Source: a virus (Duplodnaviria; Heunggongvirae; Uroviricota; Caudoviricetes). From it: DNA of 38,422 bases. A program made the position numbers and the translations under genes. Below the pieces are notes generated by a model, which ran no database searches, was not told where the DNA came from, and saw nothing but the letters and a program-made list of their open reading frames with translations. This document shows, one piece after another, positions 1,852 to 35,785 of the stretch (the first letter of the stretch is position 1; each line of letters begins with the position of its first letter). The stretch spans positions 1 to 38,422 of IMG/VR virus record IMGVR_UViG_2925919700_000005, one strand, 5' to 3'.

Positions 1852-1877
1852 GGGACTCTTCGGAGTCCCTTTTTTTA
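1852..1877 (+). terminator. Rho-independent terminator (UUCG-loop hairpin + T7)
   Basis: GGGACTC-TTCG-GAGTCCC followed by TTTTTTT; abuts the 3' end of the leftward gene 1875..2816. Confidence 0.7.
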
Positions 1878-2816
1878 TTGGCAGTAAGAAAAGTTAGTAC
1901 CGTACATTTCATCATGAAGCATTGCAGCATTGCGTTTCTGTTCTTCTTCCTCATCTTCTACATCACTAGAAAAATGAGATTTGCCCTTAAAAGAACGAAG
2001 TAATTGCAGTGCAGCCATCGGATCACGCATCACATCGATTTTCAATTCTACTTCATCATTTGCGGCCTCATCAGCCGCGTTTTCAACTACTGCTACCGGA
2101 GCAACTTCTTTAGCTTTCAGTTCTTCAATCTCAGATTTCTGTGCTTCGATAATCTGGTCTTTTTCTTCCAGTGCAGCTTTCAGTTCTGCGATCTGTGCTT
2201 CCAGTGCAGCAAAGCGATCTTCAACAACCGGAGAAACAGCATTCACCTGTGCTTCCAGTTCCAGAAATGCTTCGCAAGATTCAATACGTTCTTTCTCTTC
2301 ACCTTCATAAGCAACCAGTTCTACAACTTCTTTTTCGGTAGCGTGGCTGTTAAAGAATACAGCAAAGTAAGGATTGCCAGATTTAGTGAAGTTCAGTTTA
2401 GCTTTTCCGGTAACTTCTTTACGACGACCGAAGGTGATCTGGCAATCAGCGGTATCCTGAAAATCCATGTTAGGAGCGGAAACGATAGCAGTATCACCAG
2501 CAATAACCAGGTGGAACAGTTCAGAAGAGTTCTTAACGGTAAAAGTAACGATGTGGTCTACTGCAACGTCTTTAGCAGGTTTAACGCGGTCGATTGCTTT
2601 ACGAATGCCGTTAGGCAGTTTACCGTCAACACCAAAGCCAGCCGCGATCAGTGCTTCACGATGTGCTTTAAAGCCAGCGAAAGCGGATTTCTGCTGTGCA
2701 AAGGAAACATGAGCAACAACTTTCGGCTGAATCTTCTTGTTTGCTTCTGTGCCAAATTTGATAACTGCTTTAGCGTTGGTTACTTCGTTAGTGAAAAAGT
2801 TAGCGGAAAATAACAT
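1875..2816 (-). CDS. hypothetical protein (313 aa) with central coiled coil and acidic C-terminal region
   Basis: Long ORF with strong AGGAG SD 9 nt upstream of the ATG; heptad-like segment EAQIAELKAALEEKDQIIEAQKSEIEELKAKE; plus-strand ORFs inside it are treated as shadows. Confidence 0.7.
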   Translation of the reverse strand: MLFSANFFTNEVTNAKAVIKFGTEANKKIQPKVVAHVSFAQQKSAFAGFKAHREALIAAGFGVDGKLPNGIRKAIDRVKPAKDVAVDHIVTFTVKNSSELFHLVIAGDTAIVSAPNMDFQDTADCQITFGRRKEVTGKAKLNFTKSGNPYFAVFFNSHATEKEVVELVAYEGEEKERIESCEAFLELEAQVNAVSPVVEDRFAALEAQIAELKAALEEKDQIIEAQKSEIEELKAKEVAPVAVVENAADEAANDEVELKIDVMRDPMAALQLLRSFKGKSHFSSDVEDEEEEQKRNAAMLHDEMYGTNFSYCQ

Positions 2817-2859
2817 TATAAATACTCCTGTGGAAAGTTAGTTTTAATTGTTCATTTCA

Positions 2860-2899
2860 AGCCTCCTTTGCTGCAACAAGGGAGGCTTTTTCTTTTTTA
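2860..2899 (+). terminator. GC hairpin with T-run between two leftward genes (plus-sense terminator or mRNA structure)
   Basis: AGCCTCC ... GGAGGCT followed by TTTTTCTTTTTT. Confidence 0.4.
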
Positions 2900-2928
2900 A
2901 AGCCATCATATAATTCTCAGTCAAAGTA

Positions 2929-3111
2929 TTAGTAAACCTCTGCGGTTATCTTTACTTTAATGTCATACTTCTTTAAGAGTTTGTGGAAGGTTGATTGATC
3001 AATACCTTCACCTTTAAACCATTCACCCATCACTACATCAGGTGTCAGTTCAAAATAACGCTTTGCCATTTCTAAAACGATTTCACGAGTGAACTTAACA
3101 GGTCGTGCCAT
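2929..3111 (-). CDS. small hypothetical protein (60 aa)
   Basis: AGGAGG SD immediately upstream (minus strand); ATATAAATAATAGTGAG box ~55 nt upstream. Confidence 0.55.
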   Translation of the reverse strand: MARPVKFTREIVLEMAKRYFELTPDVVMGEWFKGEGIDQSTFHKLLKKYDIKVKITAEVY

Positions 3112-3246
3112 CTTGAATCCTCCTAAATCTGGATTAATGATTTCTTAAAAAAGAGCGTTAACCGCTCACTATTATTTATATGGGGATTGTATTTTATTTT
3201 TCAACCCCTCACACTTATCTCTTATATATGTATTTATAACAGAGAT

Positions 3247-3403
3247 ATGTTAAAATGTTATTCAGATGTTATCAGACGTGTTAAATGTGTTAAACCGCAG
3301 CACGAATTGCTAAAGCGGAGAGCACGAATTAACCAAATTGATGTATATTCAATCAATTTAGCAAAAAGGCATAGCACTTTTTGCTAAAGCGGTGAGCATT
3401 AAT
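3247..3403. repeat. Phased TGTTA repeats plus two ~24-bp direct repeats (TTGCTAAAGCGG(A/T)GAGCA...)
   Basis: TGTTA recurs five times at ~9-12 bp spacing (3248-3293); TTGCTAAAGCGGAGAGCACGAATT (3307-3330) and TTGCTAAAGCGGTGAGCATTAATT (3380-3403). Confidence 0.6.
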
Positions 3404-3630
3404 TGAGCTATGAATTGTAAAGATTTGTTACAAGATTTTCTCTCAGATCCAAATCTTCACAGGCATATAACAATTTAACACGGTGATAACAATAGGAAGG
3501 AAAATCGGTAAATTTTCACTTTCAATACAAATATTATAACATATTTATCTCGAATTTTCAAGTATACCACCGATCCTACACAGTGTCAACAAAGGATTTT
3601 CAAACCTACACTAGCCCTACACTATGAAAA

Positions 3631-3870
3631 TTGCCCCTGAATTTTGCCCCTGAACCAAAATCCCCTAGATTTCACTATCCCATTTTTGCCCCTGAAACCT
3701 ACTATTTTTGCCCCTGAAATTCTGGGAAACAGTGATTTTGCCCCTCATTTTTGCCCCTGAAATGCCAATAATTGCCCCTGAAAATCTAATTTTTGCCCCT
3801 GAAATTTGCCCCAGAAAAGGATTGGTGAGAAAAACTCTTTATAAAACATTAACTTAGCGAGGGGCAAAAG
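3631..3870. repeat. Iteron-like array of ~9 direct copies of TTTTGCCCCTGAA with one inverted copy
   Basis: Copies at ~3631, 3642, 3683, 3705, 3736 (variant CTCA), 3748, 3772, 3790, 3805 (variant CCAGAA); inverted copy GAGGGGCAAAAG at 3859-3870; spacers are 10-30 bp and irregular. Confidence 0.8.
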
Positions 3871-4012
3871 CGGGGGATCGGGTGTGCATAGATATTATAT
3901 AACACATTCGCTACGCTCATGTGTAAAACCAAAAACAACAAATAACCAAAAAGATATTAGGAGGGCGTAGCCCGACTGCGCGAAGCGCTAACCAATTACT
4001 TCTAGTAACACT

Positions 4013-4240
4013 AATTTAAACTAGATGATACTAGATGGTCTTAGAAGGAATTAACTAGTTTGCTCGCTCGCTTCGCTCACTCTCAAACGTCTGCGACGCC
4101 ACTGCGTGGCATCGAGAATCACTTCTGAAAGGATTTTCTTGAAAGGGATTTTAAACTAGTTACTAACTGATTCTAGAAAGATAGTAATAATCACTTTGAA
4201 GATAATAGTAGTTAACTGGTTACTAGATGATTCTAGATCA
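4013..4240. repeat. Three copies of a ~17-25 bp ACTAGATGAT(A/T)CTAGA-type direct repeat flanking a GC-rich structured core
   Basis: ACTAGATGATACTAGATGG (4020-4038), AACTAGTTACTAACTGATTCTAGAAAG (~4153-4180), AACTGGTTACTAGATGATTCTAGATCA (~4212-4238); GC-rich inverted repeats in 3961-4110. Confidence 0.6.
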
Positions 4241-4266
4241 CTTTAATGATCATGAAAGGTATTGGT

Positions 4267-4296
4267 TATCCCTTCGGGATTGCAACCTTCGGTTGC
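4267..4296 (+). other. Two tandem UUCG-tetraloop hairpins
   Basis: ATCCC-TTCG-GGAT and GCAACC-TTCG-GTTGC back to back. Confidence 0.5.
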
Positions 4297-4500
4297 TAAA
4301 TTGCTTCCGGATTATTATTTCTCCAAAAGAAAGATTCTTATATTCTAAAGATACTTCTTCGTTTTGATGATGATTTAATCAAAATCTATGAAGGAGGCGA
4401 AGCCGACTGAATACCAATTCCTTTCAAATTAGACAAAAATTTCTCGTTATAAATAATAGTGAACTTACTTTGATTCACTTTCTTTTAGAGGATTTCCACT

Positions 4501-4953
4501 ATGATCAATACTAAAACTCCTTTCATTCTTCTGGGTCTGAACCATGATGATAATCTGGCTATGATGCATGTTTTCGCTAATCGTGGTTATAACATCATTC
4601 GTCATTCCGAAGACTCCAATTTCTCAACTGCTTTCTATGCTCTTAAACGTAATGGTCGCCCTACGGTGATCGTAGACTGCTTTACTGATGAAGGTCGTGA
4701 ACAATACAACAACATTCCGGCAATTATTGTTCGTGATGACCTGCCGTTTGATGTTCGTGAATATGACGTTGATTTAGGCTCTTACTATGGGATCGCCGAT
4801 CTTGACCAGATTATGGCTGATTATGGTAAACAACCCGCTCAGGAAGCCCCAGAACACGATGAACAAGACGAAGATGACGACGACTACACACCAATCTGTT
4901 TCTCTTCTCACGGTGGCTTCTACGGTTACGATGAAGGCTTAGATATGCTGTAA
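4501..4953 (+). CDS. hypothetical acidic protein (150 aa); N-terminal pattern faintly resembles a receiver/flavodoxin-like fold
   Basis: GAGGA SD; CGTTATAAATAATAGTGA box 40 nt upstream; C-terminal run EHDEQDEDDDDY; alternating hydrophobic strands FILLG / YNIIRH / VIVDC / PAIIV. Confidence 0.6.
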   Translation: MINTKTPFILLGLNHDDNLAMMHVFANRGYNIIRHSEDSNFSTAFYALKRNGRPTVIVDCFTDEGREQYNNIPAIIVRDDLPFDVREYDVDLGSYYGIADLDQIMADYGKQPAQEAPEHDEQDEDDDDYTPICFSSHGGFYGYDEGLDML

Positions 4954-5406: not shown

Positions 5407-5502
5407 TAAATTTCTATCATAAATAAAAATGTTCCGGTGGTGATGCCGGAACTAGGAGGACCAATATCATTATCGCAAAACCGTTTAAGGGGAATTACTA
5501 CT

Positions 5503-6333
5503 ATGAATACTGTTACTGCTATGAATACTGCTGTTAAAACTGCTTCCGTGTCTCTGGTTGTTGATAACACCAAACCGCTGACCATGTCTACTTTGCAGAT
5601 CGCGCAAATGATGGATCGCGTAGACCGCCACCGTGATATTAAGCGAACTGTTGACCGTCTCGTTTCTTCCGGTGTAATTGTCCACACGCCAACGGCGCGC
5701 GAACAACTGGAAGATAAATTTGGTCGTTCTCGTGAAATTGAAGTTTATCTTCTTGATGAACGTTCGTCATATATTGTTGTTGCTCAAATTTCGCCAGAAT
5801 TTACCGCTTTTATCGTTGATGAATGGAAGCGACTGAAAGAAGAAAATGAAAAACTTCGCTCTACTCCGGTTAACCCGTATGCAGACTTTGAAGAAACCGA
5901 TTGGATCGAACTGGCATTAAAGAAAACTCGCGAAAATAAAAAGCTGATTGAACTTCATGTTCGCAAATCCGTAGATAGCCATTCAATGACCCGTCTGTTA
6001 GGAGCTAAAAAGGGCGCTACGAAGGTTAAAGAAGCACTGACGGCCTTGCGTACTGCTGGCTACATTGAGCGCGTCTACGATGAAAATAACAAGCCGTGTG
6101 GGTATGTTGCTAATGACTCTTCTCTGTCTTTCTGCCGCATGAATGCTCACTACCAACTTGAGTTTACTGTTGATGTTCTTCCTGTGCTGGTTGAATTGGG
6201 TGTTCTGGAAGAAGAACAAAAAGCAACTCTGAATCTTCCTAAGCCGAACAACACTATTCTGATTCAAAATAAAGCTGCTAAACAGATTCGTGAATCAGGT
6301 AACGTAATTTCCCTTGTTGATTTTGGGATCTGA
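5503..6333 (+). CDS. Rha-family phage regulatory protein / antirepressor-like
   Basis: N-terminal segment LTMSTLQIAQMMDRVDRHRDIKRTVDRL matches the Rha-type DNA-binding pattern as I recall it; start chosen at ATG 5503 (AAGGGG SD) rather than the track's GTG 5437. Confidence 0.55.
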   Translation: MNTVTAMNTAVKTASVSLVVDNTKPLTMSTLQIAQMMDRVDRHRDIKRTVDRLVSSGVIVHTPTAREQLEDKFGRSREIEVYLLDERSSYIVVAQISPEFTAFIVDEWKRLKEENEKLRSTPVNPYADFEETDWIELALKKTRENKKLIELHVRKSVDSHSMTRLLGAKKGATKVKEALTALRTAGYIERVYDENNKPCGYVANDSSLSFCRMNAHYQLEFTVDVLPVLVELGVLEEEQKATLNLPKPNNTILIQNKAAKQIRESGNVISLVDFGI

Positions 6334-6508: not shown

Positions 6509-6742
6509 TCAAAAACCTGTTGCTTCTACGATCTGACCATCACCGATCTGAACATAGAATTTAATGTCTAACTTCTTAATATTCTTATAGAATTGGGCGA
6601 TTGAGATCCCATGTTCACTAAGAATCTGTTCTTTCGCTTCCTTACCACGATCCGCTGTATAATAAGCGTAGGCAATATCAGCCATTTGTTCAGCGTTAAA
6701 ACGGGCAGGACGACCGCGAGTAGCTTTAGTAGTCATAGTCAT
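6509..6742 (-). CDS. small basic protein with RGRP (AT-hook-like) motif; putative DNA-binding
   Basis: GGAGA SD; N-terminus MTMTTKATRGRPARF. Confidence 0.5.
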   Translation of the reverse strand: MTMTTKATRGRPARFNAEQMADIAYAYYTADRGKEAKEQILSEHGISIAQFYKNIKKLDIKFYVQIGDGQIVEATGF

Positions 6743-7458: not shown

Positions 7459-9363
7459 ATGAAACTGATTTCAAATAAGGCAAAATTAAAAAAGATTCTT
7501 AAAAATATCTCTGCGGCAATTCGCCCACCTAAAACGATGAAACCTAGCGAATGGGTAGAGGCTAATGTAGTTGCAACCGATGGTGTTAAAGCCGGATCGC
7601 TAATTAAATTGCATCCCTTCCAACGTGGAATGATGGACGCGATCACCGAAGACCGTAGAAAAATTGTGTTTAAATGTTCGGCACAGTTGGGTAAGACCAT
7701 GATTCTTAACGGAATTATCTTCCATCGGATCGCGAGTAACCCTACTAATATTGGGGTGTTGCAAAGTAACGTTAGAGAACTAAATTCTTGGATCGCTGGT
7801 AAGGTGAAGCCAGTATTAGAGGCAACGCCAGAATTAAAGGCGATGATCACCGACAAATCAGACCGTAATGCCGTTAACAACTCATCGATTATTCAGCTTC
7901 GTAACGGATCATTCATGTATTTCATGTCGCTGAACAGTCCATCACACTTGCGCGGTAAAACACTCCCTTTGATTATTCTTGATGAAGTTGATGCGGCTGA
8001 TGAGTCAGACGAAGGGAACCCGATCCAGCTAGCGGAACAACGCGCAACCACTTTCGGGGAAGATGCAAGGATCGTAATTGCTTCCACTCCAACCGCTCGT
8101 GATGGGGCGATTAACCAACAATGGGAACTCTCGGATAAGAGAAAATATCATGTCGTTTGCCAGCATTGCGGACACAAGCACGTAATGGAATGGAGTAACG
8201 TACATTTCGATTGGCATACGATTAACGGTAAATCATTACCCAACCCAGATACAGCCGTTTACCGTTGCCCTGAATGTGAAACCGACTGGACCGAAGGGGA
8301 TCGCCTACGTGCTGTTGCTCAGGGAGAATGGGTCGCCACCGAACCAAACGCGGAAGTAATCGGTTTTCATGCTAACCGCCTTATGTCTCCGTTTAGTTCT
8401 ATCCGTGCGTGTGTGGTGGACTTTGCTGATAGCTACGCGAATATGTCGCTGGCAACGTTCTATAATGTGGTGCTCGGTGAAACCTTCGATGATCTTAACG
8501 AAGACCGCACAGCCGACGAATTAGAAACGCTGAAAACTGATATTAGCCTAGACAATATTCCTGATGATGTACTGGCTCTGGTTGGTGGAGTTGACCAGCA
8601 AAAAGACCGTCTGGAATCTACCTTGCTGGGTATTTCTCGTAAAGGGCTATGCGTAGTTGATCACCGATCATTCTATGATGTGAACTGCGAACGCCACGAA
8701 TCACCAGCATATAACCAGCTTTACAACTTCCTGAAAGCGAAATTCTATACCCGATCCGGTCAACGAATCCCGATGTTATCTGCTTTCGTGGACTCATCGA
8801 ACGGACGAGCTACAAACGTGATCTATCGATTCTGCACACAATGGCAAAACCTAACAGCCATTAAAGGGGCAAGCAATGTTGATGCTCCAATCCTTCCGGT
8901 CAAGGACACAAGAACGGGTGGTTTTACTCTTAAAATTCTGGGCGTAAACAACCTTAAGACGATGATCCGTGAAATGATTAACCGGAACTTGAGAGACAGC
9001 GATCCTCATACGGTCTTCCAGATTGGTGACGTTCCTGATGACTATTGCGAGCAATTGTTATCTGAACAGTTGAAACGGCAGGGTAATACCACACGTTGGG
9101 TAAAAGTTGGTCAGCAACGAAACGAGGCTCTCGACTGCCTGGCTTACTCCTATGCTGCTTCTCGCCATGTACTCAATAAAATGTCATGGGAAAAACTCGA
9201 AGCCATCAAAGATAGTTTGAACCGTGAACCAGAAGAACCCGTAGAAGCTCCTAAATCGCAATCTAACGAGCAAATAGAAGAAACTAAGCCAATCACACGA
9301 CCGCAACGTCAAAACATCGCCAGACGTCCAAATAGAGGCCGTAGCTGGGTAACATCGTTCTAA
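7459..9363 (+). CDS. terminase large subunit (lambda gpA-like ATPase/nuclease)
   Basis: Walker A CSAQLGKT and Walker B LPLIILDEVD; Cys/His cluster CQHCGH...CPEC; 634 aa, immediately upstream of the portal gene. Confidence 0.9.
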   Translation: MKLISNKAKLKKILKNISAAIRPPKTMKPSEWVEANVVATDGVKAGSLIKLHPFQRGMMDAITEDRRKIVFKCSAQLGKTMILNGIIFHRIASNPTNIGVLQSNVRELNSWIAGKVKPVLEATPELKAMITDKSDRNAVNNSSIIQLRNGSFMYFMSLNSPSHLRGKTLPLIILDEVDAADESDEGNPIQLAEQRATTFGEDARIVIASTPTARDGAINQQWELSDKRKYHVVCQHCGHKHVMEWSNVHFDWHTINGKSLPNPDTAVYRCPECETDWTEGDRLRAVAQGEWVATEPNAEVIGFHANRLMSPFSSIRACVVDFADSYANMSLATFYNVVLGETFDDLNEDRTADELETLKTDISLDNIPDDVLALVGGVDQQKDRLESTLLGISRKGLCVVDHRSFYDVNCERHESPAYNQLYNFLKAKFYTRSGQRIPMLSAFVDSSNGRATNVIYRFCTQWQNLTAIKGASNVDAPILPVKDTRTGGFTLKILGVNNLKTMIREMINRNLRDSDPHTVFQIGDVPDDYCEQLLSEQLKRQGNTTRWVKVGQQRNEALDCLAYSYAASRHVLNKMSWEKLEAIKDSLNREPEEPVEAPKSQSNEQIEETKPITRPQRQNIARRPNRGRSWVTSF

Positions 9364-15317: not shown

Positions 15318-18300
15318 ATGCAGTCGATCCAATTTAAACGAACAAATGTTTCTGGCAAAAAACCAACGCCGGAACAATTACAGGTCGGTGAGGTGGCAAT
15401 CAACCTTAAAGACCATGTTATTTTTACCAAAGACCGAGATCATGAAGTAGTTCAAATCTCTGTTTCTCCTGAAACTCACGCGGCACTAGAATCTAAAGTT
15501 GATGCTAACAAACAAGAATTGGATAGCACAATTGCAGTAAATGACCGCAATATTCACGCTAAAGTAGATGAAATTAAACAAACTACTGATTCTACTATCG
15601 CAGCAAATCACGCAGAAATTAACAATAAAGTTGATGTAATTAAACGCGAAACCGACGCGACAATCGAGGCCAATAAAAATAAAGCTGCTTCCGATCTTGC
15701 TGGTGTTAAAGCTGAATTGTCGGATACTATCAACGCTAATAAAAATGCGGCTGCTGTAGCAACTCAGGAACTGGACACCCGCATCAATAAAAAAGTTGAT
15801 GATATTAAATCCCGTACTGATGCAACCATCGCAAGCAATCACAAAGCAATCAATGACAAGGTTGATTTGATTAAGGCAGAAACTGACCGCACTATCGCAG
15901 CAAATCAAGCCTATGCGGAAAATCAGTTAACTGACACCTACAATAACCTTACTGGTGTGATTGCAGCTAATAAGCAAGAGGCAGCGGATAGCGTCGCAGC
16001 ATTAACCCGTGATGTTGAAGCCAAAAATTCAGCAATTCATAGCAAAGTTGACAATAACAAGTCTTACACTGATTCTGAACTTGCACGTTTAGAAAGCCGT
16101 ATTGATGCAGCCGATGGATCTGCTGATGGCAAGTACATCAAAAAACACGTAAACACTTATACTGATGGTTATTTGCTGTCTAAGACCGCAAACTATTTTG
16201 ATGATCCAAATGCGCGTAATCTTAATTACTTTGGTGCATTCCGCATGAATGACCTGGCGGGTCATATTGCAATGATCTTGCATGTTCCGCATCCATCTGG
16301 TGTTAATCATGCTCGTGGCTTTGAGTTCACTTATGGGTCTAATCCGGTTCATACGGTAAGAACATACGGCTATGATGAATTGGGTCATTTGGCATATTCT
16401 CACCGCATGTATCATGAAGGTGATAAACCTACTCCTGCCGAAATTGGCGCATATTCGAAAGCAGAAATTGACCGACTGTTCCAGAAGACGCTTAATTTTG
16501 GGATCGAGGGTGGTTGGTTTAAACTAGGCACTTTGACAATGCCACAGCAACACGGTCGTAGTGCTAAGATCCGCTTAGTTGGTGGTAACGGTTATAACGT
16601 CGGGATGAATGGACAAGCCAATATTATCGAATTGGTGATTCGATGCGGCAACAATAGCCCGAAAGGTGTTGTATTCAATGCGTATTATACTATTTGGCAT
16701 TATGAACAACATTTTTGCGCTATTCCAACCGATGGCGACAATTACGATCTTTACGCTTACTACGGTGCACATACAGGATTTGTTTTAGCAGAATATCAAG
16801 TTTCTTCCGGTGGTGTTTCTTTAAACCTGTTGGATACTCCTGAATATCTGGGTGGTGAAAAACCTGTTGCAGATGAAATTTTTGATGCTCTTAACATTTC
16901 ATCGTTCACTAACTTTAGCAACCGTGGAACGTTAAATTTTGCGGGAAACCATCAAGGCCAATATGACATTGAGCATTTGAACGAACAACAAACTAACAGC
17001 AAAAAGATGTTGCGTCGCTTCCGTAGTTCTGCTCCTGCCACTATCTGGCATGAGACAGTTGATGATAACGCATATCGTCTTGCTACTGGATACGAAGATA
17101 CAAATCAGGAATTATTGCTGACAGCAACAACCGGGTTACATGTCAAGAGATTAACATTGGATGGTGGTGCTGCTGGTGGAAATGCTGGTATTGATATTCG
17201 TCGAGGACCAAACGAATCAAGCCATTTTAATTTTATGGATTATCGAACTGGTCAAGATGTTCGTAATGGCTGGTTTGGTTTTGGTGATTTGACGACCAAA
17301 GATTTTATTTGGTGGAACGATAACGGTCAAAACTCGATAAACTTGATCGAAAACGGTGAATTGCATATTACTGGCGGTAAAGGCCAGAAAATTGTAATGA
17401 ATAGCGAAGTTGCATTATCTGAAAATGCTCGTTTGGCTGTTAAAGGTGGCAATTATGGCTTAATTTTTAGAAATGATGGTACTGGTTTCCATATACTGAC
17501 TACCGATTTAAAAGATTCTTTTGGAAATTGGAATAATCGTAGACCATTCAGCTATAATTTTGATGATGGTGGACTATATTTAGGTGGCACTGAAACTGCT
17601 CGTTGTTTGCATCTGGGAATTGATGGTAGCACCCGTCTTGAGGAGAACTTAGTTTTCAGGGCGGGATCTCGTCAATCAATGGACTATATTGAAATGATCC
17701 ATTGGGGTAACAGTAATACCGCTCGTGACAACGTTTTGAGTATGAAAGACTCGAAAGGATTCCTTGCTGAATTTGAACGCGTGGGTGGGACTAACGGCGT
17801 TAAAACCAGATTCTTTGGTGAAACCTTCACTGACGGTACATTATACCTAAATCAGATGAATAATAGCTCTGAACGATTCTCTATCAACAATTGGGGAAAT
17901 TCAGAAGTTGGACGCGCGGCAGTAATGGAAATCGGTGATTCCAAAGGTTATCACTTCTATACTGAACGCAGGACAGATAACAGTTTGGCGTTTGATGTTG
18001 CTGGCGCTTTTACTGTGCATGGACCTAACGGAATAACCATCAAAAACTCAACTGGTGCACGCCATATCTGGTTTAGAGATGATAGCGATGCAGAAAAGGC
18101 TGTTATCTGGGCTACAGATGAGGGTATTTTACATATACGAAATAATCATGGGGGTTCATTTAGTCATCACTTCCAGGGTGCAATGATTAAAGCGGGAGAG
18201 CAAGTTCCTTATAATAGTGAATACGCTCTTATCCGTGGTGAGGTTTCTGGTGGTGCATGGGATGACTGGCGCAACCGTCCTGCTGGTATTCTCTTAGATT

Positions 18301-18839
18301 GTCAGGATTCACATACCCAAGCATATTCAATTTGGAAAGCAACTCATTGGGGTGTTGATCATCTTGCGGCAATGGGTGTTCATGCTGGCGGTGGTCAAGC
18401 TACCGTAATGATGCATATGAACAAAGGCGGCTGGTATTCATGGTCTGCAAATGGTGATTTCACATCTAGTGCGTCGGTTTACTGTAACGATGTTTATATT
18501 CGTTCCGACCGTCGTCTGAAAATTAACGTTGAAGACTACGAAGAAAATGCGGTAGATAAGGTAAATAAACTAAAAGTTAAAACCTACGATAAAGTTAAGT
18601 CTCTTTCTGACCGCGAAGTCATCGCACATGAGATTGGTATTATCGCACAGGATTTACAAGAAATTTTACCGGAAGCTGTTAGCACTTCTAATGTCGGATC
18701 TCTTGATAACCCAGAAGAGATTTTAACAATTTCTAACTCTGCTGTGAACGCGCTTTTAATTAAAGCGGTCCAAGAAATGAGCGAAGAAAATAAACTTCTT
18801 CGTGAACGTCTTGCTGCAATTGAAGCTAAATTAGGGTAA
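15318..18839 (+). CDS. long tail fibre with C-terminal S74 intramolecular chaperone (autoproteolytic) domain
   Basis: N-terminal ~250 aa of ~22-residue repeats (KVDxIKxxTDxTIAANxxxIN); C-terminal YIRSDRRLKINVEDYE...LLIKAVQEMSEENKLLRERLAAIEAKLG is the S74 signature with a predicted cleavage at S|D. Confidence 0.85.
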   Translation: MQSIQFKRTNVSGKKPTPEQLQVGEVAINLKDHVIFTKDRDHEVVQISVSPETHAALESKVDANKQELDSTIAVNDRNIHAKVDEIKQTTDSTIAANHAEINNKVDVIKRETDATIEANKNKAASDLAGVKAELSDTINANKNAAAVATQELDTRINKKVDDIKSRTDATIASNHKAINDKVDLIKAETDRTIAANQAYAENQLTDTYNNLTGVIAANKQEAADSVAALTRDVEAKNSAIHSKVDNNKSYTDSELARLESRIDAADGSADGKYIKKHVNTYTDGYLLSKTANYFDDPNARNLNYFGAFRMNDLAGHIAMILHVPHPSGVNHARGFEFTYGSNPVHTVRTYGYDELGHLAYSHRMYHEGDKPTPAEIGAYSKAEIDRLFQKTLNFGIEGGWFKLGTLTMPQQHGRSAKIRLVGGNGYNVGMNGQANIIELVIRCGNNSPKGVVFNAYYTIWHYEQHFCAIPTDGDNYDLYAYYGAHTGFVLAEYQVSSGGVSLNLLDTPEYLGGEKPVADEIFDALNISSFTNFSNRGTLNFAGNHQGQYDIEHLNEQQTNSKKMLRRFRSSAPATIWHETVDDNAYRLATGYEDTNQELLLTATTGLHVKRLTLDGGAAGGNAGIDIRRGPNESSHFNFMDYRTGQDVRNGWFGFGDLTTKDFIWWNDNGQNSINLIENGELHITGGKGQKIVMNSEVALSENARLAVKGGNYGLIFRNDGTGFHILTTDLKDSFGNWNNRRPFSYNFDDGGLYLGGTETARCLHLGIDGSTRLEENLVFRAGSRQSMDYIEMIHWGNSNTARDNVLSMKDSKGFLAEFERVGGTNGVKTRFFGETFTDGTLYLNQMNNSSERFSINNWGNSEVGRAAVMEIGDSKGYHFYTERRTDNSLAFDVAGAFTVHGPNGITIKNSTGARHIWFRDDSDAEKAVIWATDEGILHIRNNHGGSFSHHFQGAMIKAGEQVPYNSEYALIRGEVSGGAWDDWRNRPAGILLDCQDSHTQAYSIWKATHWGVDHLAAMGVHAGGGQATVMMHMNKGGWYSWSANGDFTSSASVYCNDVYIRSDRRLKINVEDYEENAVDKVNKLKVKTYDKVKSLSDREVIAHEIGIIAQDLQEILPEAVSTSNVGSLDNPEEILTISNSAVNALLIKAVQEMSEENKLLRERLAAIEAKLG

Positions 18840-18877
18840 TTGGAAAGCGGGGAGAAATCTCCGCTAAGGATTCTTAT

Positions 18878-19174
18878 ATGGGATATTGGGTAAGTAGTGA
18901 AATTAATACTAAAATCGATGCTTTAAAATGGCATGTGTTTGATATTCCTAATGGATATGTTCCCGGACGTGCTGGTGTTGCCGTTTTGCGGCATACCGCT
19001 CGTGATGGTTGGGGCGATATGCATATTTTCGTTGACGGTGTGGTCGCCGCGCGTCGTCGTGGTGGTGGGGATTGGGGATTTACGGTTAATGCGTTTGTTC
19101 CTGCTGGATGTACTGTCACCTTTGGTCATGGGGGTGTCGGTGGTATTGAATACTTTAAATTTATGGAGTTTTAA
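18878..19174 (+). CDS. glycine-rich small protein, paralog 1 of 3 (98 aa)
   Basis: TAAGGA SD; shares M-x-x-W-V, W[FH]xIPNG[WY], GGGD and a basic aromatic C-terminus with the next two ORFs. Confidence 0.65.
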   Translation: MGYWVSSEINTKIDALKWHVFDIPNGYVPGRAGVAVLRHTARDGWGDMHIFVDGVVAARRRGGGDWGFTVNAFVPAGCTVTFGHGGVGGIEYFKFMEF

Positions 19175-19176
19175 TT

Positions 19177-19482
19177 ATGGCTGGATGGGTTGCTGGAAGA
19201 ATGGCTAATGCCATTAGCATTTATGCTAATGGCGGCTGGTTTGGTATCCCTAATGGTTGGGTGGCGGATTCATGCGGTATTGTGTCTGTTCATGCCGAAG
19301 CCGTTGGTGGCGGTGGTGACCTGGACGCAGAATTATATGTAAACGGTACTCTCGAATCAGGTCATCACGCTGGTAATGCAGGAAGTTGGGGAGCAAGTTC
19401 TTTAGTTGGTGCTGGCGCTACTGTCAGTTTTAGTATTGGTAAAGGAAGTTTAAACCACTTCCAATTTAGGAGAATGCAATAA
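19177..19482 (+). CDS. glycine-rich small protein, paralog 2 of 3 (101 aa)
   Basis: Starts 2 nt after the paralog-1 stop; GIPNGWVADSCGIVSVHAEAVGGGGD. Confidence 0.65.
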   Translation: MAGWVAGRMANAISIYANGGWFGIPNGWVADSCGIVSVHAEAVGGGGDLDAELYVNGTLESGHHAGNAGSWGASSLVGAGATVSFSIGKGSLNHFQFRRMQ

Positions 19483-19784
19483 TGGCATTTTGGGTAGATG
19501 GTGCTTTAGGTAATAGAGCAGGTAAAGCGAATCAAGGATGGTTTGATATTCCTAACGGTTGGACACCTGACGCTTTCGGCACGGTTTCATTTGGTGCTCA
19601 TTCTTCTGGTGGTGGCGGTGGTGACTCAGAATTGCTTTTGCATGGCTTTTGTGTGTCTGGAAGTCATAAGGGTCATGATTGGGGACAGATCCATTCTTGT
19701 ATTGTGCCGCAAGGGGCGGTAATTACCGTTAGCACAAATAGGGGGGTCGCTCATCTTCGTTATAGACGTTTGAGCAACCGCTAA
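19482..19784 (+). CDS. glycine-rich small protein, paralog 3 of 3 (100 aa)
   Basis: ATG overlaps the paralog-2 stop (TAATG); DIPNGWTPDAFGTVSFGAHSSGGGGGD. Confidence 0.65.
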   Translation: MAFWVDGALGNRAGKANQGWFDIPNGWTPDAFGTVSFGAHSSGGGGGDSELLLHGFCVSGSHKGHDWGQIHSCIVPQGAVITVSTNRGVAHLRYRRLSNR

Positions 19785-19838
19785 ATAAATAGAATTACGG
19801 GTATGTGCCCTATTGTTTAAAATAGAAGGAAAAGAATA

Positions 19839-20615: not shown

Positions 20616-21944
20616 CTGAGAGATCCCCTCATAATTTCCCCAAAACGTAACCATGTGTGAATAGATTTTGAGTAAGCAGGGTTGCAGCCACGAGTGAGTC
20701 TTCCCTTGTTATTGTGTAGCCAGAATGCCGCAAAACTTCCATGCCTAAGCGAACTGTTGAGAGTACGTTTCGATTTCTGACTGTGTTAGCCTGGAAGTGC
20801 TTGTCCCAACCTTGTTTCTGAGCATGAACGCCCGCAAGCCAACATGTTAGTTGAAGCATCAGGGCGATTAGCAGCATGATATCAAAACGCTCTGAGCTGC
20901 TCGTTCGGCTATGGCGTAGGCCTAGTCCGTAGGCAGGACTTTTCAAGTCTCGGAAGGTTTCTTCAATCTGCATTCGCTTCGAATAGATATTAACAAGTTG
21001 TTTGGGTGTTCGAATTTCAACAGGTAAGTTAGTTGCTAGAATCCATGGCTCCTTTGCCGACGCTGAGTAGATTTTAGGTGACGGGTGGTGACAATGAGTC
21101 CGTGTCGAGCGCTGATTTTTTCGGCCTTTAGAGCGAGATTTATACAATAGAATTTGGCATGAGATTGGATTGCTTTTAGTCAGCCTCTTATAGCCTAAAG
21201 TCTTTGAGTGACTAGATGACATATCATGTAAGTTGCTGATAGGTTTCCAGTTTTCCGCTCCTAGGTCTGCATATTGTACTTTTCCTCTTACTCGACTTAA
21301 CCAGTACCAACCCAGCTTCTCAACGGATTTATACCATGGCACTTTAAAGCCAGCATCACTGACAATGAGCGGTGTGGTGTTACTCGGTAGAATGCTCGCA
21401 AGGTCGGCTAGAAATTGGTCATGAGCTTTCTTTGAACATTGCTCTGAAAGCGGGAACGCTTTCTCATAAAGAGTAACAGAACGACCGTGTAGTGCGACTG
21501 AAGCTCGCAATACCATAAGCCGTTTTTGCTCACGGATATCAGACCAGTCAACAAGTACAATGGGCATCGTATTGCCCGAACAGATAAAGCTAGCATGCCA
21601 ACGGTATACAGCGAGTCGCTCTTTGTGGAGGTGACGATTACCTAACAATCGGTCGATTCGTTTGATGTTATGTTTTGTTCTCGCTTTGGTTGGCAGGTTA
21701 CGGCCAAGTTCGGTAAGAGTGAGAGTTTTACAGTCAAGTAAGGCGTGGCAAGCCAACGTTAAGCTGTTGAGTCGTTTTAAGTGTAATTCGGGGCAGAATT
21801 GGTAAAGAGAGTCGTGTAAAATATCGAGTTCGCACATTTTGTTGTCTGATTATTGATTTTTGGCGAAACCATTTGATCATATGACAAGATGTGTATCTAC
21901 CTTAACTTAATGATTTTGATAAAAATCATTAGGGGATTCATCAG
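20616..21944 (-). mobile_element. IS10 insertion sequence, complete (1329 bp)
   Basis: Ends CTGAGAGATCCCCTCATAATTTCCCC (inside end, 20616) and ...AAAATCATTAGGGGATTCATCAG (outside end, 21944); length 1329 bp; encodes the 402-aa IS10 transposase. Confidence 0.97.
20629..21837 (-). CDS. IS10 transposase
   Basis: 402-aa translation MCELDILHDSLYQFCPELHLKRL...HGYVLGKL matches the IS10/Tn10 transposase as I recall it; start is 107 bp inside the outside end. Confidence 0.97.
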   Translation of the reverse strand: MCELDILHDSLYQFCPELHLKRLNSLTLACHALLDCKTLTLTELGRNLPTKARTKHNIKRIDRLLGNRHLHKERLAVYRWHASFICSGNTMPIVLVDWSDIREQKRLMVLRASVALHGRSVTLYEKAFPLSEQCSKKAHDQFLADLASILPSNTTPLIVSDAGFKVPWYKSVEKLGWYWLSRVRGKVQYADLGAENWKPISNLHDMSSSHSKTLGYKRLTKSNPISCQILLYKSRSKGRKNQRSTRTHCHHPSPKIYSASAKEPWILATNLPVEIRTPKQLVNIYSKRMQIEETFRDLKSPAYGLGLRHSRTSSSERFDIMLLIALMLQLTCWLAGVHAQKQGWDKHFQANTVRNRNVLSTVRLGMEVLRHSGYTITREDSLVAATLLTQNLFTHGYVLGKL

Positions 21945-32364: not shown

Positions 32365-32396
32365 AACAAAAGCGCCTCTAGTGGGCGCTTTTTTGT
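32364..32396. terminator. Bidirectional rho-independent terminator between convergent genes
   Basis: AAGCGCC-TCTAGT-GGGCGCTT flanked by an A-run upstream and a T-run downstream. Confidence 0.7.
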
Positions 32397-33886
32397 TATA
32401 TGGCAATTGTTTTAGTTGCATAGCTGAACTTGTCGGTTAGATAATAGCGGATTCTCTCAAGTGCATGTTTTACCGCATAATTTTTATGCTTGACTTTTCC
32501 GTTACGACCGAATATACACAGATGATCGATAAGATCCCAGACCGTTGCAATGTCTTTCGAACCATGTTTACGCAATGCACGACCGATACTCTGACGAACG
32601 ATAGTTGATTCCTTCACGGGATGACCGAAAATAACATGGTGCAAATTCTTAATTGAAACACCAGTAGAGAAAACACCATAGGATGCAACGCAAATGATCC
32701 CTGTTTCCCCTTCCGCTAATTTCTTAAATTCATCACGTTCTTCTGTCTTAACTCCACCGTCAATATAATAAACCTTGTCGTGTACCTTCTGTAACGCGTC
32801 ATACATAAGTTTTCCGTGCTTAGTATTGCGGAACATCAGGAATACGTTTTCTCCCTTCTTAGCGAGTTTTAGCGCCAAATTACAAGCAAACTTATTTCGT
32901 CGTGGATTAGACGTAATATACTTGATCTCTTCCGCATATTCTCTACCCTTAACCGCGCTACATTCCTCATCGGTATAACGAAGGAAAAGACAGTTAATTT
33001 TCAGTTTTGTCACCTGCCCTTCTTCCATCAGGCGGTCAATACTCACGATCTTAGAAATATCACCGAAAAGCCCGACATACTGCATTAAATGGCACTTTGA
33101 TTCTTTCGGGGAACCAGTCATGCCGATCTTAAATTGGCAATGATTCATTCCGTTAATGATATTGGTAATATTTTTGGCACTAGCCTTATGCGATTCATCA
33201 ACTATCAACATTCCATATTGTTTGAACCATTCAGGAGGCATCTTGCACGCTGATTGCCAGGTACTAACCGTGATTAACCTGTCTCCCGGATGTTTCCCGC
33301 TACCACTCATCATTGTATGAATTGCTTCATAAGGGAATAGCCTATAATCGATGAAATCATCCCTCATTTGAACCACTAGCGATGTAGTAGGGACAATGAT
33401 TAACACTTTTCCGGTGTAATGCTCTAAGTACCAACGAGACAGCATACAAGCAATCAATGACTTACCCGCACTGGTAGGAAGAACCAGCATTCTACGGCGA
33501 TTATGAATACCCTGAAAGACTGCCTCCCTTTGATACCAGTAAGGATTGATTTTATTGGAACCGGAATACACTTCTAGGGAATCAATCCATTCATTAATCG
33601 CGTCTTTGGTTACATCTTCCTTCTCAAGCAATCGCGGGTCAATCCAGACTGAATAGCCCATATTTTTAACGAAGACACCCAACGTTTTTAATAGTCCAAT
33701 TGGTAGGGTATTTTCATGCGTAAACAGTCTTATTCGTCCATCCCAGCCGGAATACTTGTAGCGGGGGCTAAACCTAGCCCCTTCAACCTCAAACGAGAAA
33801 TAATCCCTTAATTCCATTCCGATAGAAGGAGAGCAATCAACCTTAACGAAACTGTAATCTTGAAAATGAATTTTAATATCTTGCAT
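32396..33886 (-). CDS. UvsW-like SF2 DNA helicase
   Basis: Walker A LPTSAGKS, IIVPTT, DExH box IVDESH and VWDLIDH; overall resemblance to T4 UvsW as recalled; start set to ATG 33886, overlapping the upstream stop. Confidence 0.8.
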   Translation of the reverse strand: MQDIKIHFQDYSFVKVDCSPSIGMELRDYFSFEVEGARFSPRYKYSGWDGRIRLFTHENTLPIGLLKTLGVFVKNMGYSVWIDPRLLEKEDVTKDAINEWIDSLEVYSGSNKINPYWYQREAVFQGIHNRRRMLVLPTSAGKSLIACMLSRWYLEHYTGKVLIIVPTTSLVVQMRDDFIDYRLFPYEAIHTMMSGSGKHPGDRLITVSTWQSACKMPPEWFKQYGMLIVDESHKASAKNITNIINGMNHCQFKIGMTGSPKESKCHLMQYVGLFGDISKIVSIDRLMEEGQVTKLKINCLFLRYTDEECSAVKGREYAEEIKYITSNPRRNKFACNLALKLAKKGENVFLMFRNTKHGKLMYDALQKVHDKVYYIDGGVKTEERDEFKKLAEGETGIICVASYGVFSTGVSIKNLHHVIFGHPVKESTIVRQSIGRALRKHGSKDIATVWDLIDHLCIFGRNGKVKHKNYAVKHALERIRYYLTDKFSYATKTIAI

Positions 33887-34455
33887 TAGTTCCACTCCAC
33901 ACTTGCAATATTCTTTATATTGTTTAGTGATTTATTGCAGTAGTGGAATGTTTCAGTTTTGCCGTATTCAATCCCGCCTATACCCACATCCAGTAATCTC
34001 TTTATTGCTCTTTCAGTGGCTAAAGCATGTTTCATTGATGGCATTTCACCAGCAAAGACAATATCAAAGTTATGACCGGGATTGCGTACACCCAGATTAA
34101 TGCGTCGCTTGATGATTGACTTTGTTACACCAAATTTACCAATATCCCCTGATTTCATTACATAGAGATAAGGCACACCCGCTTTATATTGAAAGTAATC
34201 ACTTTTGAGACATGCACAGCGTTTACCTTCATTAAGCAGGTTGGTAGCTGATTTGTCGGCTCTATTGCCGCATCGGGTACATGTAAGAGCAATTCTTGAA
34301 TGAAGCCCTTTAAACTCACCCAGAAAGCCATGAAAGACTAACGGTAAGTCCTTCTCTTTGATGTGAGTCAGAATGCGTTGTTCTAATGCCGATGGAGTTA
34401 CAGCACGGGAGGATTTAGGAGTAAAAACAATATCTTTAGCCATTACTGGAATCAT
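33886..34455 (-). CDS. GIY-YIG-like (T5orf172-type) protein with N-terminal zinc ribbon; possible homing endonuclease or DNA-binding nuclease
   Basis: CTRCGN...CAC Cys cluster followed by YLYVMKSGDIGKFGVTKSIIKRR (GIY-YIG-like Y-x-Y...K-F-G-x-T...R pattern). Confidence 0.5.
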   Translation of the reverse strand: MIPVMAKDIVFTPKSSRAVTPSALEQRILTHIKEKDLPLVFHGFLGEFKGLHSRIALTCTRCGNRADKSATNLLNEGKRCACLKSDYFQYKAGVPYLYVMKSGDIGKFGVTKSIIKRRINLGVRNPGHNFDIVFAGEMPSMKHALATERAIKRLLDVGIGGIEYGKTETFHYCNKSLNNIKNIASVEWN

Positions 34456-34609
34456 ATAGACCTCACTTTTTTAACTTATAGGCATAACCTCAATATGGTT
34501 GGTTTGGGATTTAGGGTCGCGTATTATACACATTCAGATAGAGAATGCAATAGTAAGACAATTTTCTCTAATAAATAGTAGTGAGCTTATTATTTTAGAG
34601 GAAACTACT

Positions 34610-35785
34610 ATGAAACTTGCTTACGCTGCCGAAATTCCTTTTGTTAAGAAAACTCGCGGTTTATCGCCGGAAGAGTACCAACAACGAATCATCGCTAAAC
34701 TGGAACCTGCTTTCGTATTTGGTGGATTTATCCTACCGTGGAAGGGTAATCACACTTACTTTCGAATCTACAATTTAGATACACAAGAATATAAGGACTA
34801 CAAATTACGCAAACTGGAAGATACTAACGGGGGTGAGTTACTCCAGACTGAAAAGGCTGTATGGTTGAAAATGGAATCTCGTTGTAATGAGAAGGGAAAG
34901 AAATTCCTCGGATGGCAAGGAGAATGGAAAGGGCGCAACAAGACAAAATCCCGTGTTTTGTGCCCTGAACACAATCAAATCATGACGCCATCTCTATTAC
35001 ATGCTCTCAAAGATGATTTCGATTTTGATTGCAAAATCTGTATGGCTGAAAAATCCCAACGGGTAAGAAGTGGCAAGACTTTTGATGAAGTTATTAAGGA
35101 CAAAGAGACAATCATCAATGCACGTTGCGAGAGTACGCCTTACACCTTCAAAGGATTCATCATAAACACCCCACACCTAAAGGATGTTAAATTTAAAACC
35201 TATTGCAAGACACATAATCACGAATGGGAATCTCATTTAAGATGTGCTGATTCTTTCACTTGTCCGCTTTGCATTAAAGACCAACTGGTGCAACTGTCTA
35301 ACCGGACTTATCAGGGTAAGGCTAGTTTCTATATTCAATTATTAGATGACAAATTTATTAAATTTGGAATCACTACCCGGAAACCAGAAGAACGAATGAG
35401 AGAGCAAACCAGAAAGAGCAACTTCACTCACCGCTTAATCTTTACTCATGAGTTTGAGGATGGTTGGAAAGCCGTTGATTTAGAGCATGAAGTAAAACAA
35501 CGCTTCAAGACTCATGCAGCACCCTACAAAGATTTCAAGGATGGATGGTCGGAAACTCTGACTATTGATGAGTTACCACACTTACAGCAACTGGTTTATG
35601 ACTACCTAACCAATCAACCGGACGAGGCTAATATGTGGGTATCCCAGAAAGATGTATTTGATGACGATACATTCAAGCTACATACTCACTTCTACGGCAT
35701 CAATAAACCGGAATTTTTCTGTATTGATGACGACAGTCCTGATTTAATGGATGAATACTTTAATACTCTCTTAGACGCTGTCTAA
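34610..35785 (+). CDS. multi-zinc-finger protein with C-terminal GIY-YIG/T5orf172-like domain
   Basis: Several C/H clusters (CPEHN...CKIC; CKTHNHEWESHLRCADSFTCPLC) then FYIQLLDDKFIKFGITTRKPEERMREQ; TAATAAATAGTAGTGAG box 25 nt upstream; start set at ATG 34610 (track start is TTG 34499). Confidence 0.55.
   Translation: MKLAYAAEIPFVKKTRGLSPEEYQQRIIAKLEPAFVFGGFILPWKGNHTYFRIYNLDTQEYKDYKLRKLEDTNGGELLQTEKAVWLKMESRCNEKGKKFLGWQGEWKGRNKTKSRVLCPEHNQIMTPSLLHALKDDFDFDCKICMAEKSQRVRSGKTFDEVIKDKETIINARCESTPYTFKGFIINTPHLKDVKFKTYCKTHNHEWESHLRCADSFTCPLCIKDQLVQLSNRTYQGKASFYIQLLDDKFIKFGITTRKPEERMREQTRKSNFTHRLIFTHEFEDGWKAVDLEHEVKQRFKTHAAPYKDFKDGWSETLTIDELPHLQQLVYDYLTNQPDEANMWVSQKDVFDDDTFKLHTHFYGINKPEFFCIDDDSPDLMDEYFNTLLDAV

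Follow-up and report, generated by a model that had tools for sequence, protein, structure and literature searches.

The stretch of DNA analysed here (the window; 38,422 bp, IMG/VR record IMGVR_UViG_2925919700_000005) is a complete prophage inserted in ycdX, and is 100% identical to DNA of E. coli KSC64 (NZ_CP018840.1). This text concerns an array of short direct repeats at positions 3629-3816 of the window. The array lies in a 1389-bp gap in the RefSeq annotation (3112-4500). To the left of it is a leftward operon coding for a 60-amino-acid protein (p60, 2929-3111) and then for a 313-amino-acid protein (p313, 1875-2816). To the right are rightward genes for proteins of 150 and 110 amino acids (p150 and p110) and for a Rha-like protein (5437-6333). 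Thus, the array is located in the only divergent early control region of the prophage, between the p60–p313 operon and the rightward early genes. The features of this part of the window are as follows:

1875..2816, - strand: gene of p313 (WP_087514619.1), the putative cognate binder of the array by co-variation
2929..3111, - strand: gene of p60, a helix-turn-helix-like protein (MARPVKFTRE...), preceding the p313 gene in the leftward operon
3533..3589, - strand: two tandem near-consensus sigma-70 promoter-like sites, TTGACA-17-TATACT and TTGAAA-17-TATAAT, both with TG (consensus scan)
3575-3581, 3605-3613 and 3616-3624, + strand: three copies of CCTACAC(TA), the motif of another array type (type B), directly left of the array of the window (type A)
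3629..3816, + strand: direct-repeat array of nine copies, consensus (A)TTTTTGCCCCTGAAA (pattern search, conservation)
3859..3869, - strand: single inverted partial copy, GAGGGGCAAAA, which reads TTTTGCCCCTC on the - strand (repeat finding)

Direct reading, repeat finding and a pattern search agreed on nine same-strand copies of (T)TTTTGCCCCTGAA(A) within 3629-3816, the number given in the original prediction, although only seven of them have perfect cores. The 13-mers start at 3629, 3642, 3684, 3706, 3736 (degenerate, ...CTCAT), 3749, 3770, 3791 and 3804 (...CAGAA). Their 11-nt core, TTGCCCCTGAA, is perfect at 3631, 3644, 3686, 3708, 3751, 3772 and 3793, has one mismatch at 3806 (TTGCCCCAGAA) and two mismatches at 3738 (TTGCCCCTCAT), and each copy of it is on the + strand. 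When up to one mismatch was allowed, eight copies of the core were found, all in the array and none elsewhere in the window. The number expected by chance was 0.55 (standard deviation 0.76), and none of 100 shuffles reached eight. The spacing, which had been predicted to be irregular, appeared to be largely ordered. The start-to-start distances of the cores are 13, 42, 22, 30, 13, 21, 21 and 13 bp. Six cores (3644, 3686, 3708, 3751, 3772 and 3793) are on a two-turn lattice of 21/22 bp, with steps of 42, 22, 43, 21 and 21 bp, and the remaining three are offset from this lattice by 13 bp. As in iteron origins, at least three direct repeats of one orientation are thus spaced by helical multiples. 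The same one-orientation helical-lattice geometry was seen in the type-B arrays and in those of two other related loci, L034 and L054 (loci are referred to below by such numbers where they have to be told apart).

Thirty-five E. coli genomes share the conserved array, and it occurs with the same internal spacing in about 14 IMG/VR prophage contigs, which answers the original suggestion to look for the 13-mer in related genomes. In an alignment of 13 type-A sequences, the fraction of variable columns was 3% in the cores, 17% in the spacers, 63% in the left flank, and 73% in the inverted copy, so that the cores are the most conserved DNA of the region. Whole units were gained or lost among relatives (22 bp are deleted in L017 and 66 bp in L021), as is typical of repeat arrays. 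As a 22-bp indel would break any reading frame, the array is most likely non-coding, in line with the empty RefSeq annotation and with what had been predicted. The inverted copy, predicted to close the array, does exist; however, it is only an 11-nt partial copy, and with 8 of its 11 columns variable among the 13 sequences it is the least conserved patch. Inverted copies also follow the arrays of L086 (AGGGGCAAA) and L058 (GTGGGGAAA). Taken together, the conservation of the cores and the variation by whole units indicate that the direct repeats are under selection. The inverted copy is not constrained likewise.

The three type-B motif copies at 3575-3624 are present even though the type-B protein (see below) is absent from the window. 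The left flank of L040 is the same as that of the window, but runs into a full type-B array, and one type-B motif copy is embedded inside the array of L086. Probably, the CCTACAC(TA) copies are remnants or scars of recombination within arrays. Matches to the repeat motif in L006, L008, L011, L014, L018 and L023, and all matches from a scan of genome contigs, were rejected as coding tandem repeats or isolated matches that are unrelated to the array. A lone distal motif copy in relatives (L003:5620) is half of a terminator hairpin.

To find the partner of the array, we gathered 60 related loci by using TerL as an anchor and compared ten neighbouring proteins with the array type. In relatives without TTGCCCCTGAA, another array takes its place. 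Only one gene, the unannotated open reading frame of p313 (1875-2816, - strand), which the original prediction had not named, co-varied with the array: p313 is present in 14 of the 14 type-A loci (91-99% identity) but was undetectable in all 11 type-B loci. In contrast, p60, p150, p110, the Rha-like protein, p200, p77, the Nu1-like protein, and TerL have alternative alleles that are distributed across both array types. For instance, the identity of p60 ranges from 55 to 98% across both types and reaches 93-98% in the type-B loci L027 and L033, the Nu1-like protein is 85-98% identical in types A and B, and p313, itself 99% identical, occurs together with TerL alleles of 98%, 59% and 56% identity. 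The association of p313 with the array survives many recombination events, among them exchanges of the p60 gene and of the 500 bp between the array and the p313 gene.

The other array types are also paired with large proteins of their own. Type-B arrays consist of six to eight copies of CCTACACTA, or of five to eight copies when the motif is written CCTACACT(A). Their protein has 331-341 amino acids and is encoded at the same position as p313. Its N-terminal part of about 175 amino acids is unrelated to that of p313, but its architecture is the same: a coiled coil, an acidic linker, and a similar C-terminal motif. Type C (L058/L049) combines a third N-terminal domain with about 20 copies of (A/T)TCCCCG at 11-12-bp spacing. 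A 50%-identical homologue of p313 is accompanied by seven copies of TTTTTGCCCCTC in L086, which is also in ycdX, and a 28%-identical homologue by about ten copies of TAGCATTTGAA/GGCATCCGAA in L034, where 7 of 11 positions are shared with the motif of the window. In several types (C, L061, L086), two repeat blocks flank an A/T-rich spacer. Two loci, L058 and L061, encode two large proteins each and have composite arrays with two motifs. In sum, there are at least six natural specificity variants (TTGCCCCTGAA, TTTTTGCCCCTC, TAGCATTTGAA, CCTACACTA, TCCCCG, GATGTACAAG, and others), and at least 6-8 specificity types among otherwise near-identical phages.

The strict pairing, together with motif relatedness that tracks protein relatedness, leads us to regard p313 as very probably the cognate binder of the array. 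Judged by these comparisons, the array and p313 are the two halves of an exchangeable cassette for specificity, which this ycdX-integrated E. coli prophage has in its divergent early control region. The original idea of a multi-site binding array, possibly of iterons, is therefore supported in its general form by the constraint on the cores, their conservation, and the co-variation with one protein gene. The binders proposed at that time, namely the Rha-like protein (5437-6333), the RGRP-motif proteins (p60, 2929-3111, and p77, 6509-6742) and the Nu1-like protein (653-1222), all assort independently of array type and are not supported.

Some loci encode a second family of large coiled-coil proteins, with the conserved tail RPTLR(L/I)VA (L058:2071-3072, L061:2225-3316, L033:1746-1988). 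The type-B loci keep only an 80-amino-acid remnant of it, and the window has none. Loci with this family share the motif CCCC(C)GG(T)ATTAG.

A structure model of p313 (pLDDT 62) has a beta-rich N-terminal domain (about residues 1-170), a long coiled coil (about 178-237), an acidic linker, and short C-terminal helices. Neither p313 nor eight sister proteins gave more than coiled-coil noise against Pfam, PHROGs, NCBIfam and the sequences of PDB, and p313 had no fold match. When 1.84 billion cluster representatives were searched exhaustively, only 12 matched p313, two of which are diverged full-length relatives. An hhalign comparison of the A-type with the B- and C-type N-terminal domains was not significant.

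In the loci seen, p60 is always upstream of the large protein, but the distribution of its alleles indicates that it is not the specificity determinant. Homologues of p60 were found neither in cultured phages nor in plasmid collections. The 77-amino-acid RGRP-motif protein, p77 (6509-6742, - strand), is a paralogue of p60 (33% identity over 52 amino acids), and each of the two is encoded in a two-gene leftward unit with a larger protein, of 200 amino acids (p200) in the case of p77 and of 313 in that of p60.

The tandem promoter-like sites point leftward, away from the array and into the p60–p313 operon. An equivalent site with 11-12 of 12 consensus positions was found in L033, L058 and L086, 35-200 bp from the arrays. 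The site is conserved in all types, and as its distance to the array ranges from about 35 to about 200 bp, there is no overlap between the two. On the rightward side, the array and the predicted promoter are over 500 bp apart. All these promoter calls are consensus matches, a scan that weak or activator-dependent promoters could escape. The operon would have a leader of about 440 nt on the - strand (3112-3590). Within the leader, the motif AGCAC(G/T)AATTGCTAAAGCGG is duplicated (3299-3404), and there is a perfect inverted repeat of 12 bp at 3357-3388. Just before the start of p60 comes a terminator-like hairpin (3153-3167), which is conserved through compensatory changes in L086 (7438-7452). 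The operon may be controlled by attenuation or antitermination, or the leader RNA may be abundant.

A second conserved element is located to the right of the array. About 150 bp from it, past an A-rich tract, there are perfect mini-palindromes with a three-nucleotide centre G-N-A closed by C.G (GNA mini-hairpins):

3925..3959, + strand: A-rich, strand-asymmetric tract, right of the array and left of the first hairpin pair, a candidate unwinding element (direct reading)
3963..3988, + strand: tandem pair GGGC-GTA-GCCC (3963-3973) and GCGC-GAA-GCGC (3978-3988), GNA loops on the top strand
4088..4110, - strand: tandem pair CGTC-GCA-GACG (4088) and GCCAC-GCA-GTGGC (4098), GNA loops on the bottom strand
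4268..4296, - strand: tandem pair ATCCC-GAA-GGGAT (4268) and GCAACC-GAA-GGTTGC (4282), GAA loops on the bottom strand, both with the core CCGAAGG

With a weaker seventh hairpin on the top strand (4396-4404), the non-coding region contains seven hairpins with stems of at least 3 bp, compared with 0.19 expected. Six of the eight GNA palindromes with stems of at least 4 bp in the whole 38-kb prophage fall in the 330-bp stretch 3963-4296. The z-scores were -2.7 for the pair at 4088..4110 and -4.15 for that at 4268..4296. The DNA between the array and the hairpins is also well conserved (8% variable columns at 3870-3955 among type-A relatives). Both of the first two pairs have compensatory variants: GGCC-GTA-GGCC (L086) and ACGGC-GTA-GCCGT (type B) in the case of 3963..3988, and GTCCC-GTA-GGGAC (L086) and ACGCC-GTA-GGCGT (type B) in the case of 4088..4110. 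The hairpin at 4282 has a variant with another loop N in L033 (GCAACC-GCA-GGTTGC). Thus, the G and A of the loop are invariant, N varies (GTA, GAA, GCA), and the stems covary between types. The order of strands, top and then bottom, was kept in 17 of the 17 loci examined, including relatives whose TerL is only 51-55% identical. This switch was seen to the right of the array also in L033, L086, L034, L051, L052, L054, L056, L060, L062 and L068, and distant loci have a short array of their own 100-250 bp left of the hairpins. In single-stranded DNA the sequences are predicted to fold into tandem triloop hairpins, although nearest-neighbour folding cannot score the extra stability of GNA loops.

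With their short G/C stems, C.G closing pairs and GNA triloops with invariant G and A, the hairpins are of the d(GCGNAGC) type. Mini-hairpins of this type are unusually stable; they are found at primase start sites and complementary-strand origins of G4, St-1 and alpha3, in N4 virion RNA polymerase promoters, and in ssiA of RSF1010, the core of which is CCGAAGG (PMC13037366). That core occurs twice in the window (4268-4296), and, as in RSF1010, hairpins on opposite strands stand beside direct repeats. By analogy, the hairpins of the prophage may act as single-strand initiation (ssi) signals. The hairpin pairs are separated by copies of another repeat family, ACTAGATGATNCTAGA (4019-4045, 4154-4177, 4214-4238), which is rich in CTAG, in part palindromic, and found in type-B and type-C loci as well. 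It could provide sites for another regulator.

How would the prophage replicate? No initiator, helicase loader, primase or polymerase was recognisable among its proteins in PHROGs, Pfam and NCBIfam, and the only recognisable replication-related gene codes for a UvsW-like superfamily 2 helicase. A phage lacking these functions needs an origin that recruits host enzymes somewhere. We favour, at about even odds, a reading in which the array, bound by p313, is the iteron core of the lytic replication origin; the hairpin cluster nearby lends it indirect support. In such an origin, oligomers of p313 would coat the repeats, which lie on one face of the DNA by virtue of the 21-bp lattice, and would make the A/T-rich DNA beside them less stable. 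Transcription from the strong promoter, which is directed away from the array, would contribute negative supercoiling. Unwinding would then expose the d(C-GNA-G) mini-hairpins, on the top strand at the left and on the bottom strand at the right, and these would serve as ssi signals for the host primase or primosome, from which DNA synthesis would proceed outward. The left top-strand and right bottom-strand hairpins would both lie on leading-strand templates of the outward forks. Binding of p313 to the array, melting of DNA, priming at the hairpins, and origin function are all steps that we infer. More tentatively, and with less confidence than in the origin as such, we propose a phage origin of an undescribed kind. 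In it, orphan initiators that are not ATPases and have a swappable N-terminal specificity domain, a coiled coil and an acidic tail would act on a lattice of short iterons, and would expose paired GNA hairpins of opposite polarity that recruit the host primase or primosome directly. This would be RSF1010-like, leading-strand-primed replication in a temperate E. coli lineage that lacks a loader, primase and polymerase.

The closest parallel to this arrangement is oriV/RepC of RSF1010 (IncQ). In both, iterons are followed by an A-rich tract and by hairpins on opposite strands, the iterons have the same orientation, and the initiator, or putative initiator, is element-specific and has no ATPase domain; in RSF1010, the hairpins are ssiA and ssiB. 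However, the window has no homologues of the RepA helicase, RepB' primase or RepC (PHROGs, Pfam, NCBIfam), and priming would have to rely on host enzymes. Its element is an integrated temperate phage and not a plasmid, it has three tandem hairpin pairs instead of two ssi sites, and its repeats measure 13-16 bp and follow a 21-bp lattice, apart from extra copies at a 13-bp offset.

In lambdoid phages (lambda, phi80, 82, P22), which are mosaic and temperate, the N-terminal domain of O and the iterons of ori are exchanged together as a co-varying specificity module; the iterons have an A/T-rich region next to them, and activation requires transcription nearby. A co-varying protein/iteron module is a feature of the lineage described here, too. 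Unlike the lambdoid ori, which is inside the O gene and is served by a P-type helicase loader, the array is intergenic, 0.8 kb from the gene of p313; the window encodes no P/DnaC-like partner, and p313 has no sequence or fold similarity to O. Iteron plasmids and phage-plasmids (P1 oriR-RepA, F, R6K, pSC101, RK2) resemble the window in having repeats about two helical turns apart, an adjacent cognate Rep, variation in repeat number, and type-specific, incompatibility-like specificity. Yet their Reps are winged-helix proteins (Rep_3 and related), a domain not found in p313, their origins usually contain DnaA boxes and IHF sites, neither of which is found in the window, and no homologue of p313 occurs on any plasmid. 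Arrays of many 6-12-bp direct repeats in two blocks with an A/T-rich centre, as in types C, L061 and L086, recall R1 parC-ParR and the ori of Staphylococcus aureus pathogenicity islands (SaPIs). In SaPIs, the Rep-ori specificity varies between elements. The prophage differs in having neither a ParM/ParA partner nor a plasmid lifestyle, and the Rep of SaPIs is a helicase, whereas p313 has no NTPase motif.

Several observations weigh against an origin at this site. There were no DnaA boxes (at most one mismatch) in the non-coding region of the window, where 0.46 were expected, and no IHF consensus; scans of seven other loci for DnaA and IHF sites revealed no consistent pattern and were at chance level. 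The AT-richest 40-mers are left of the arrays, beside the promoter, which makes the position of the unwinding element uncertain. The cassette was never found on plasmids (all 61 E. coli places are chromosomal, and a plasmid collection had none), so that there is no natural witness of autonomous replication. In sequence and predicted fold, the latter from a model of moderate confidence, p313 resembles none of the known initiators or DNA-binding domains, and it has no ATPase or helicase-loader domain. The GNA hairpins could also be read as RNA elements of convergent transcripts. Finally, the phage is also without a recognisable repressor, so that an argument by lack of other candidates serves an immunity function equally well.

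The most serious alternative is indeed that the array is the operator of a transcription regulator or immunity repressor. According to it, p313 would polymerise on the repeats as a Mu-c-like protein to set the choice between lysogeny and lysis and superinfection immunity, and the array types would be heteroimmune groups. Many specificity types among near-identical phages, at least 6-8 in this case, are the classical mark of immunity regions, and the array is in the only divergent early control region. The c repressor of Mu binds DNA by its N-terminal domain, oligomerises through a leucine-zipper-like domain, and ends in a C-terminal tail with a regulatory role; p313 resembles it in domain order. 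As in Mu O1-O3 (and in the P2 C / Cox-type systems), the multi-copy, partly direct-repeat region is between divergent transcription units. No other repressor candidate was recognisable among the prophage proteins; two genes with a CapR domain (explained in 10.1101/2020.11.28.402263) near the integrase, which share the stretch 32396-35785 with the adjoining, divergently oriented UvsW-like helicase gene, turned out to be homing-endonuclease-like (T5orf172), and not obvious repressors.

Nevertheless, we find such an operator less likely than an origin. The operators of Mu overlap the early and repressor promoters, whereas the array is 35-200 bp upstream of the -35 of the strong conserved promoter, depending on the flank variant, and the predicted rightward promoter is still farther away, so that consensus scans reveal no overlap on either side. 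Operators do not typically comprise 8-20 sites that share one orientation and follow a helical lattice. Near-consensus tandem promoters and a terminator-containing leader are unlike those of a maintenance repressor, and p313 has no homology to the winged-helix domain of Mu c. Moreover, the conserved strand-switching cluster of GNA hairpins, which has no counterpart in Mu, would be left unexplained. Double lysogens are too few for a test of heteroimmunity: UTME-9 (NZ_CP157110.1), the one clear case, carries type-A and type-B prophages at different chromosomal sites, as immunity would have it, but BS74R-D (NZ_CP063332.1) has two places matching the type-A protein gene, the second of them not located.

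Could the array serve a small neighbouring regulator (the Rha-like protein, p60 or p77) or a host protein, with p313 linked to it by chance? The helix-turn-helix-like p60 is always adjacent, and the Rha family is annotated as regulatory. However, the alleles of p60, p77 and Rha are distributed without regard to array type, a motif that changes with a phage protein is not accounted for by a host factor, and neither a DnaA nor an IHF consensus is present, which makes this explanation very improbable.

A packaging site, cosB- or pac-like, would be bound by the small terminase, or p313 itself would be a TerS-like protein with a DNA-binding domain, an oligomerisation coiled coil and a TerL-binding tail. 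The relevant genes are:

653-1222: Nu1-like small terminase gene (terS)
7459-9363: lambda-type GpA terminase gene

The presence of a lambda-type terminase, the repeated gpNu1 sites that make up cosB of lambda, the superficially small-terminase-like domain order of p313, and the GC-rich elements nearby are all compatible with packaging. Against these stand the Nu1-like protein, which does not co-vary with array type, and the same p313 combined with widely different TerL alleles. Besides, 2.4 kb separate the array from terS and 3.6 kb separate it from terL, and genes of opposite orientation intervene. As terS has its own conserved GC-rich non-coding DNA upstream, cos is likelier to be there. We consider packaging exceedingly improbable. 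A conserved GC-rich stretch at 420-650, upstream of terS, is a candidate cos region, and within it lies the only other strong GNA mini-hairpin, GTCGC-GTA-GCGAC (530-542, bottom strand).

The least probable explanations are a centromere-like partition site or nucleoprotein scaffold (parC/ParR-like or TubR/tubC-like), which the 10-12-bp direct repeats in two blocks (types C and L061), similar to R1 parC, and the helically phased spacing might suggest but which the wholly chromosomal distribution and the lack of any ParA/ParM/TubZ-type NTPase gene found in the prophage contradict, and an RNA-level repeat 'sponge', for which no promoter is predicted to transcribe the array and against which the 21-bp lattice argues for recognition at the DNA level. 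Packaging, partition and the sponge thus each fail a tested defining feature.

A cassette of a cognate protein and its repeats, probably an initiator and iterons, belongs to a kind that is already known. The p313 family, its natural diversity of specificities, and its coupling to a polarity-switching GNA cluster were not described in the literature that we searched, in which we also found nothing relevant on ycdX prophages or the motif string. Of 5426 complete E. coli genomes, 57 (about 1%) carry the region, at 61 places, all of them chromosomal. The lineage has no cultured representative, no close DNA relatives were found among cultured phages, and its whole early region is annotated as 'hypothetical'. 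A concrete putative protein–DNA recognition pair offers a testable entry to replication or immunity of these phages, and the variants, whose proteins lack any known DNA-binding domain, form a natural set from which a new code of DNA recognition could be derived. Should the origin model be true, this would be a rare case in a double-stranded-DNA phage of GNA mini-hairpins as ssi signals at an origin, and would provide a compact orthogonal initiator/iteron toolkit.

The remainder of the prophage contains genes for a portal, a fused protease-capsid, siphovirus tail proteins, a T4-like distal tail fibre and an M15 endolysin, and, at its far end:

35859-37538: gene of a large serine recombinase

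An IS4-family ISVsa5 transposase gene is located among the tail genes (20629-21837), and the prophage may be defective through this insertion. Rfam had no credible family in 2800-4700, and GC skew was uninformative for the region, as it follows gene orientation. The closest cultured TerL (44.5% amino acid identity) is that of Escherichia phage DCP80 (PQ671644.1, L001/L002), whose 141-kb 'complete genome' combines T4-like genes with a siphovirus-like structural block of about 25 kb holding that TerL. We rejected it as an informative relative: the record looks like a chimeric or mixed assembly, and it lacks the array.

Two parts of the window resemble DNA of T-even phages. Just upstream of the first rightward gene, an 80-bp non-coding stretch (4310-4392) is 76-81% similar to intergenic DNA of RB49-like phages (Krischvirus), where it occurs at up to three places per phage. 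The stretch ends in the GGCGAAGCC hairpin and brings to mind the mobile 'promoter-early stem-loop' cassettes of RB49. At 16181-19800, the gene of the distal tail fibre and the small genes that follow it have 79-96% DNA identity to T4-like phages (Krischvirus, Tequatrovirus), which indicates that this temperate siphovirus-like prophage and virulent myoviruses have exchanged DNA horizontally.

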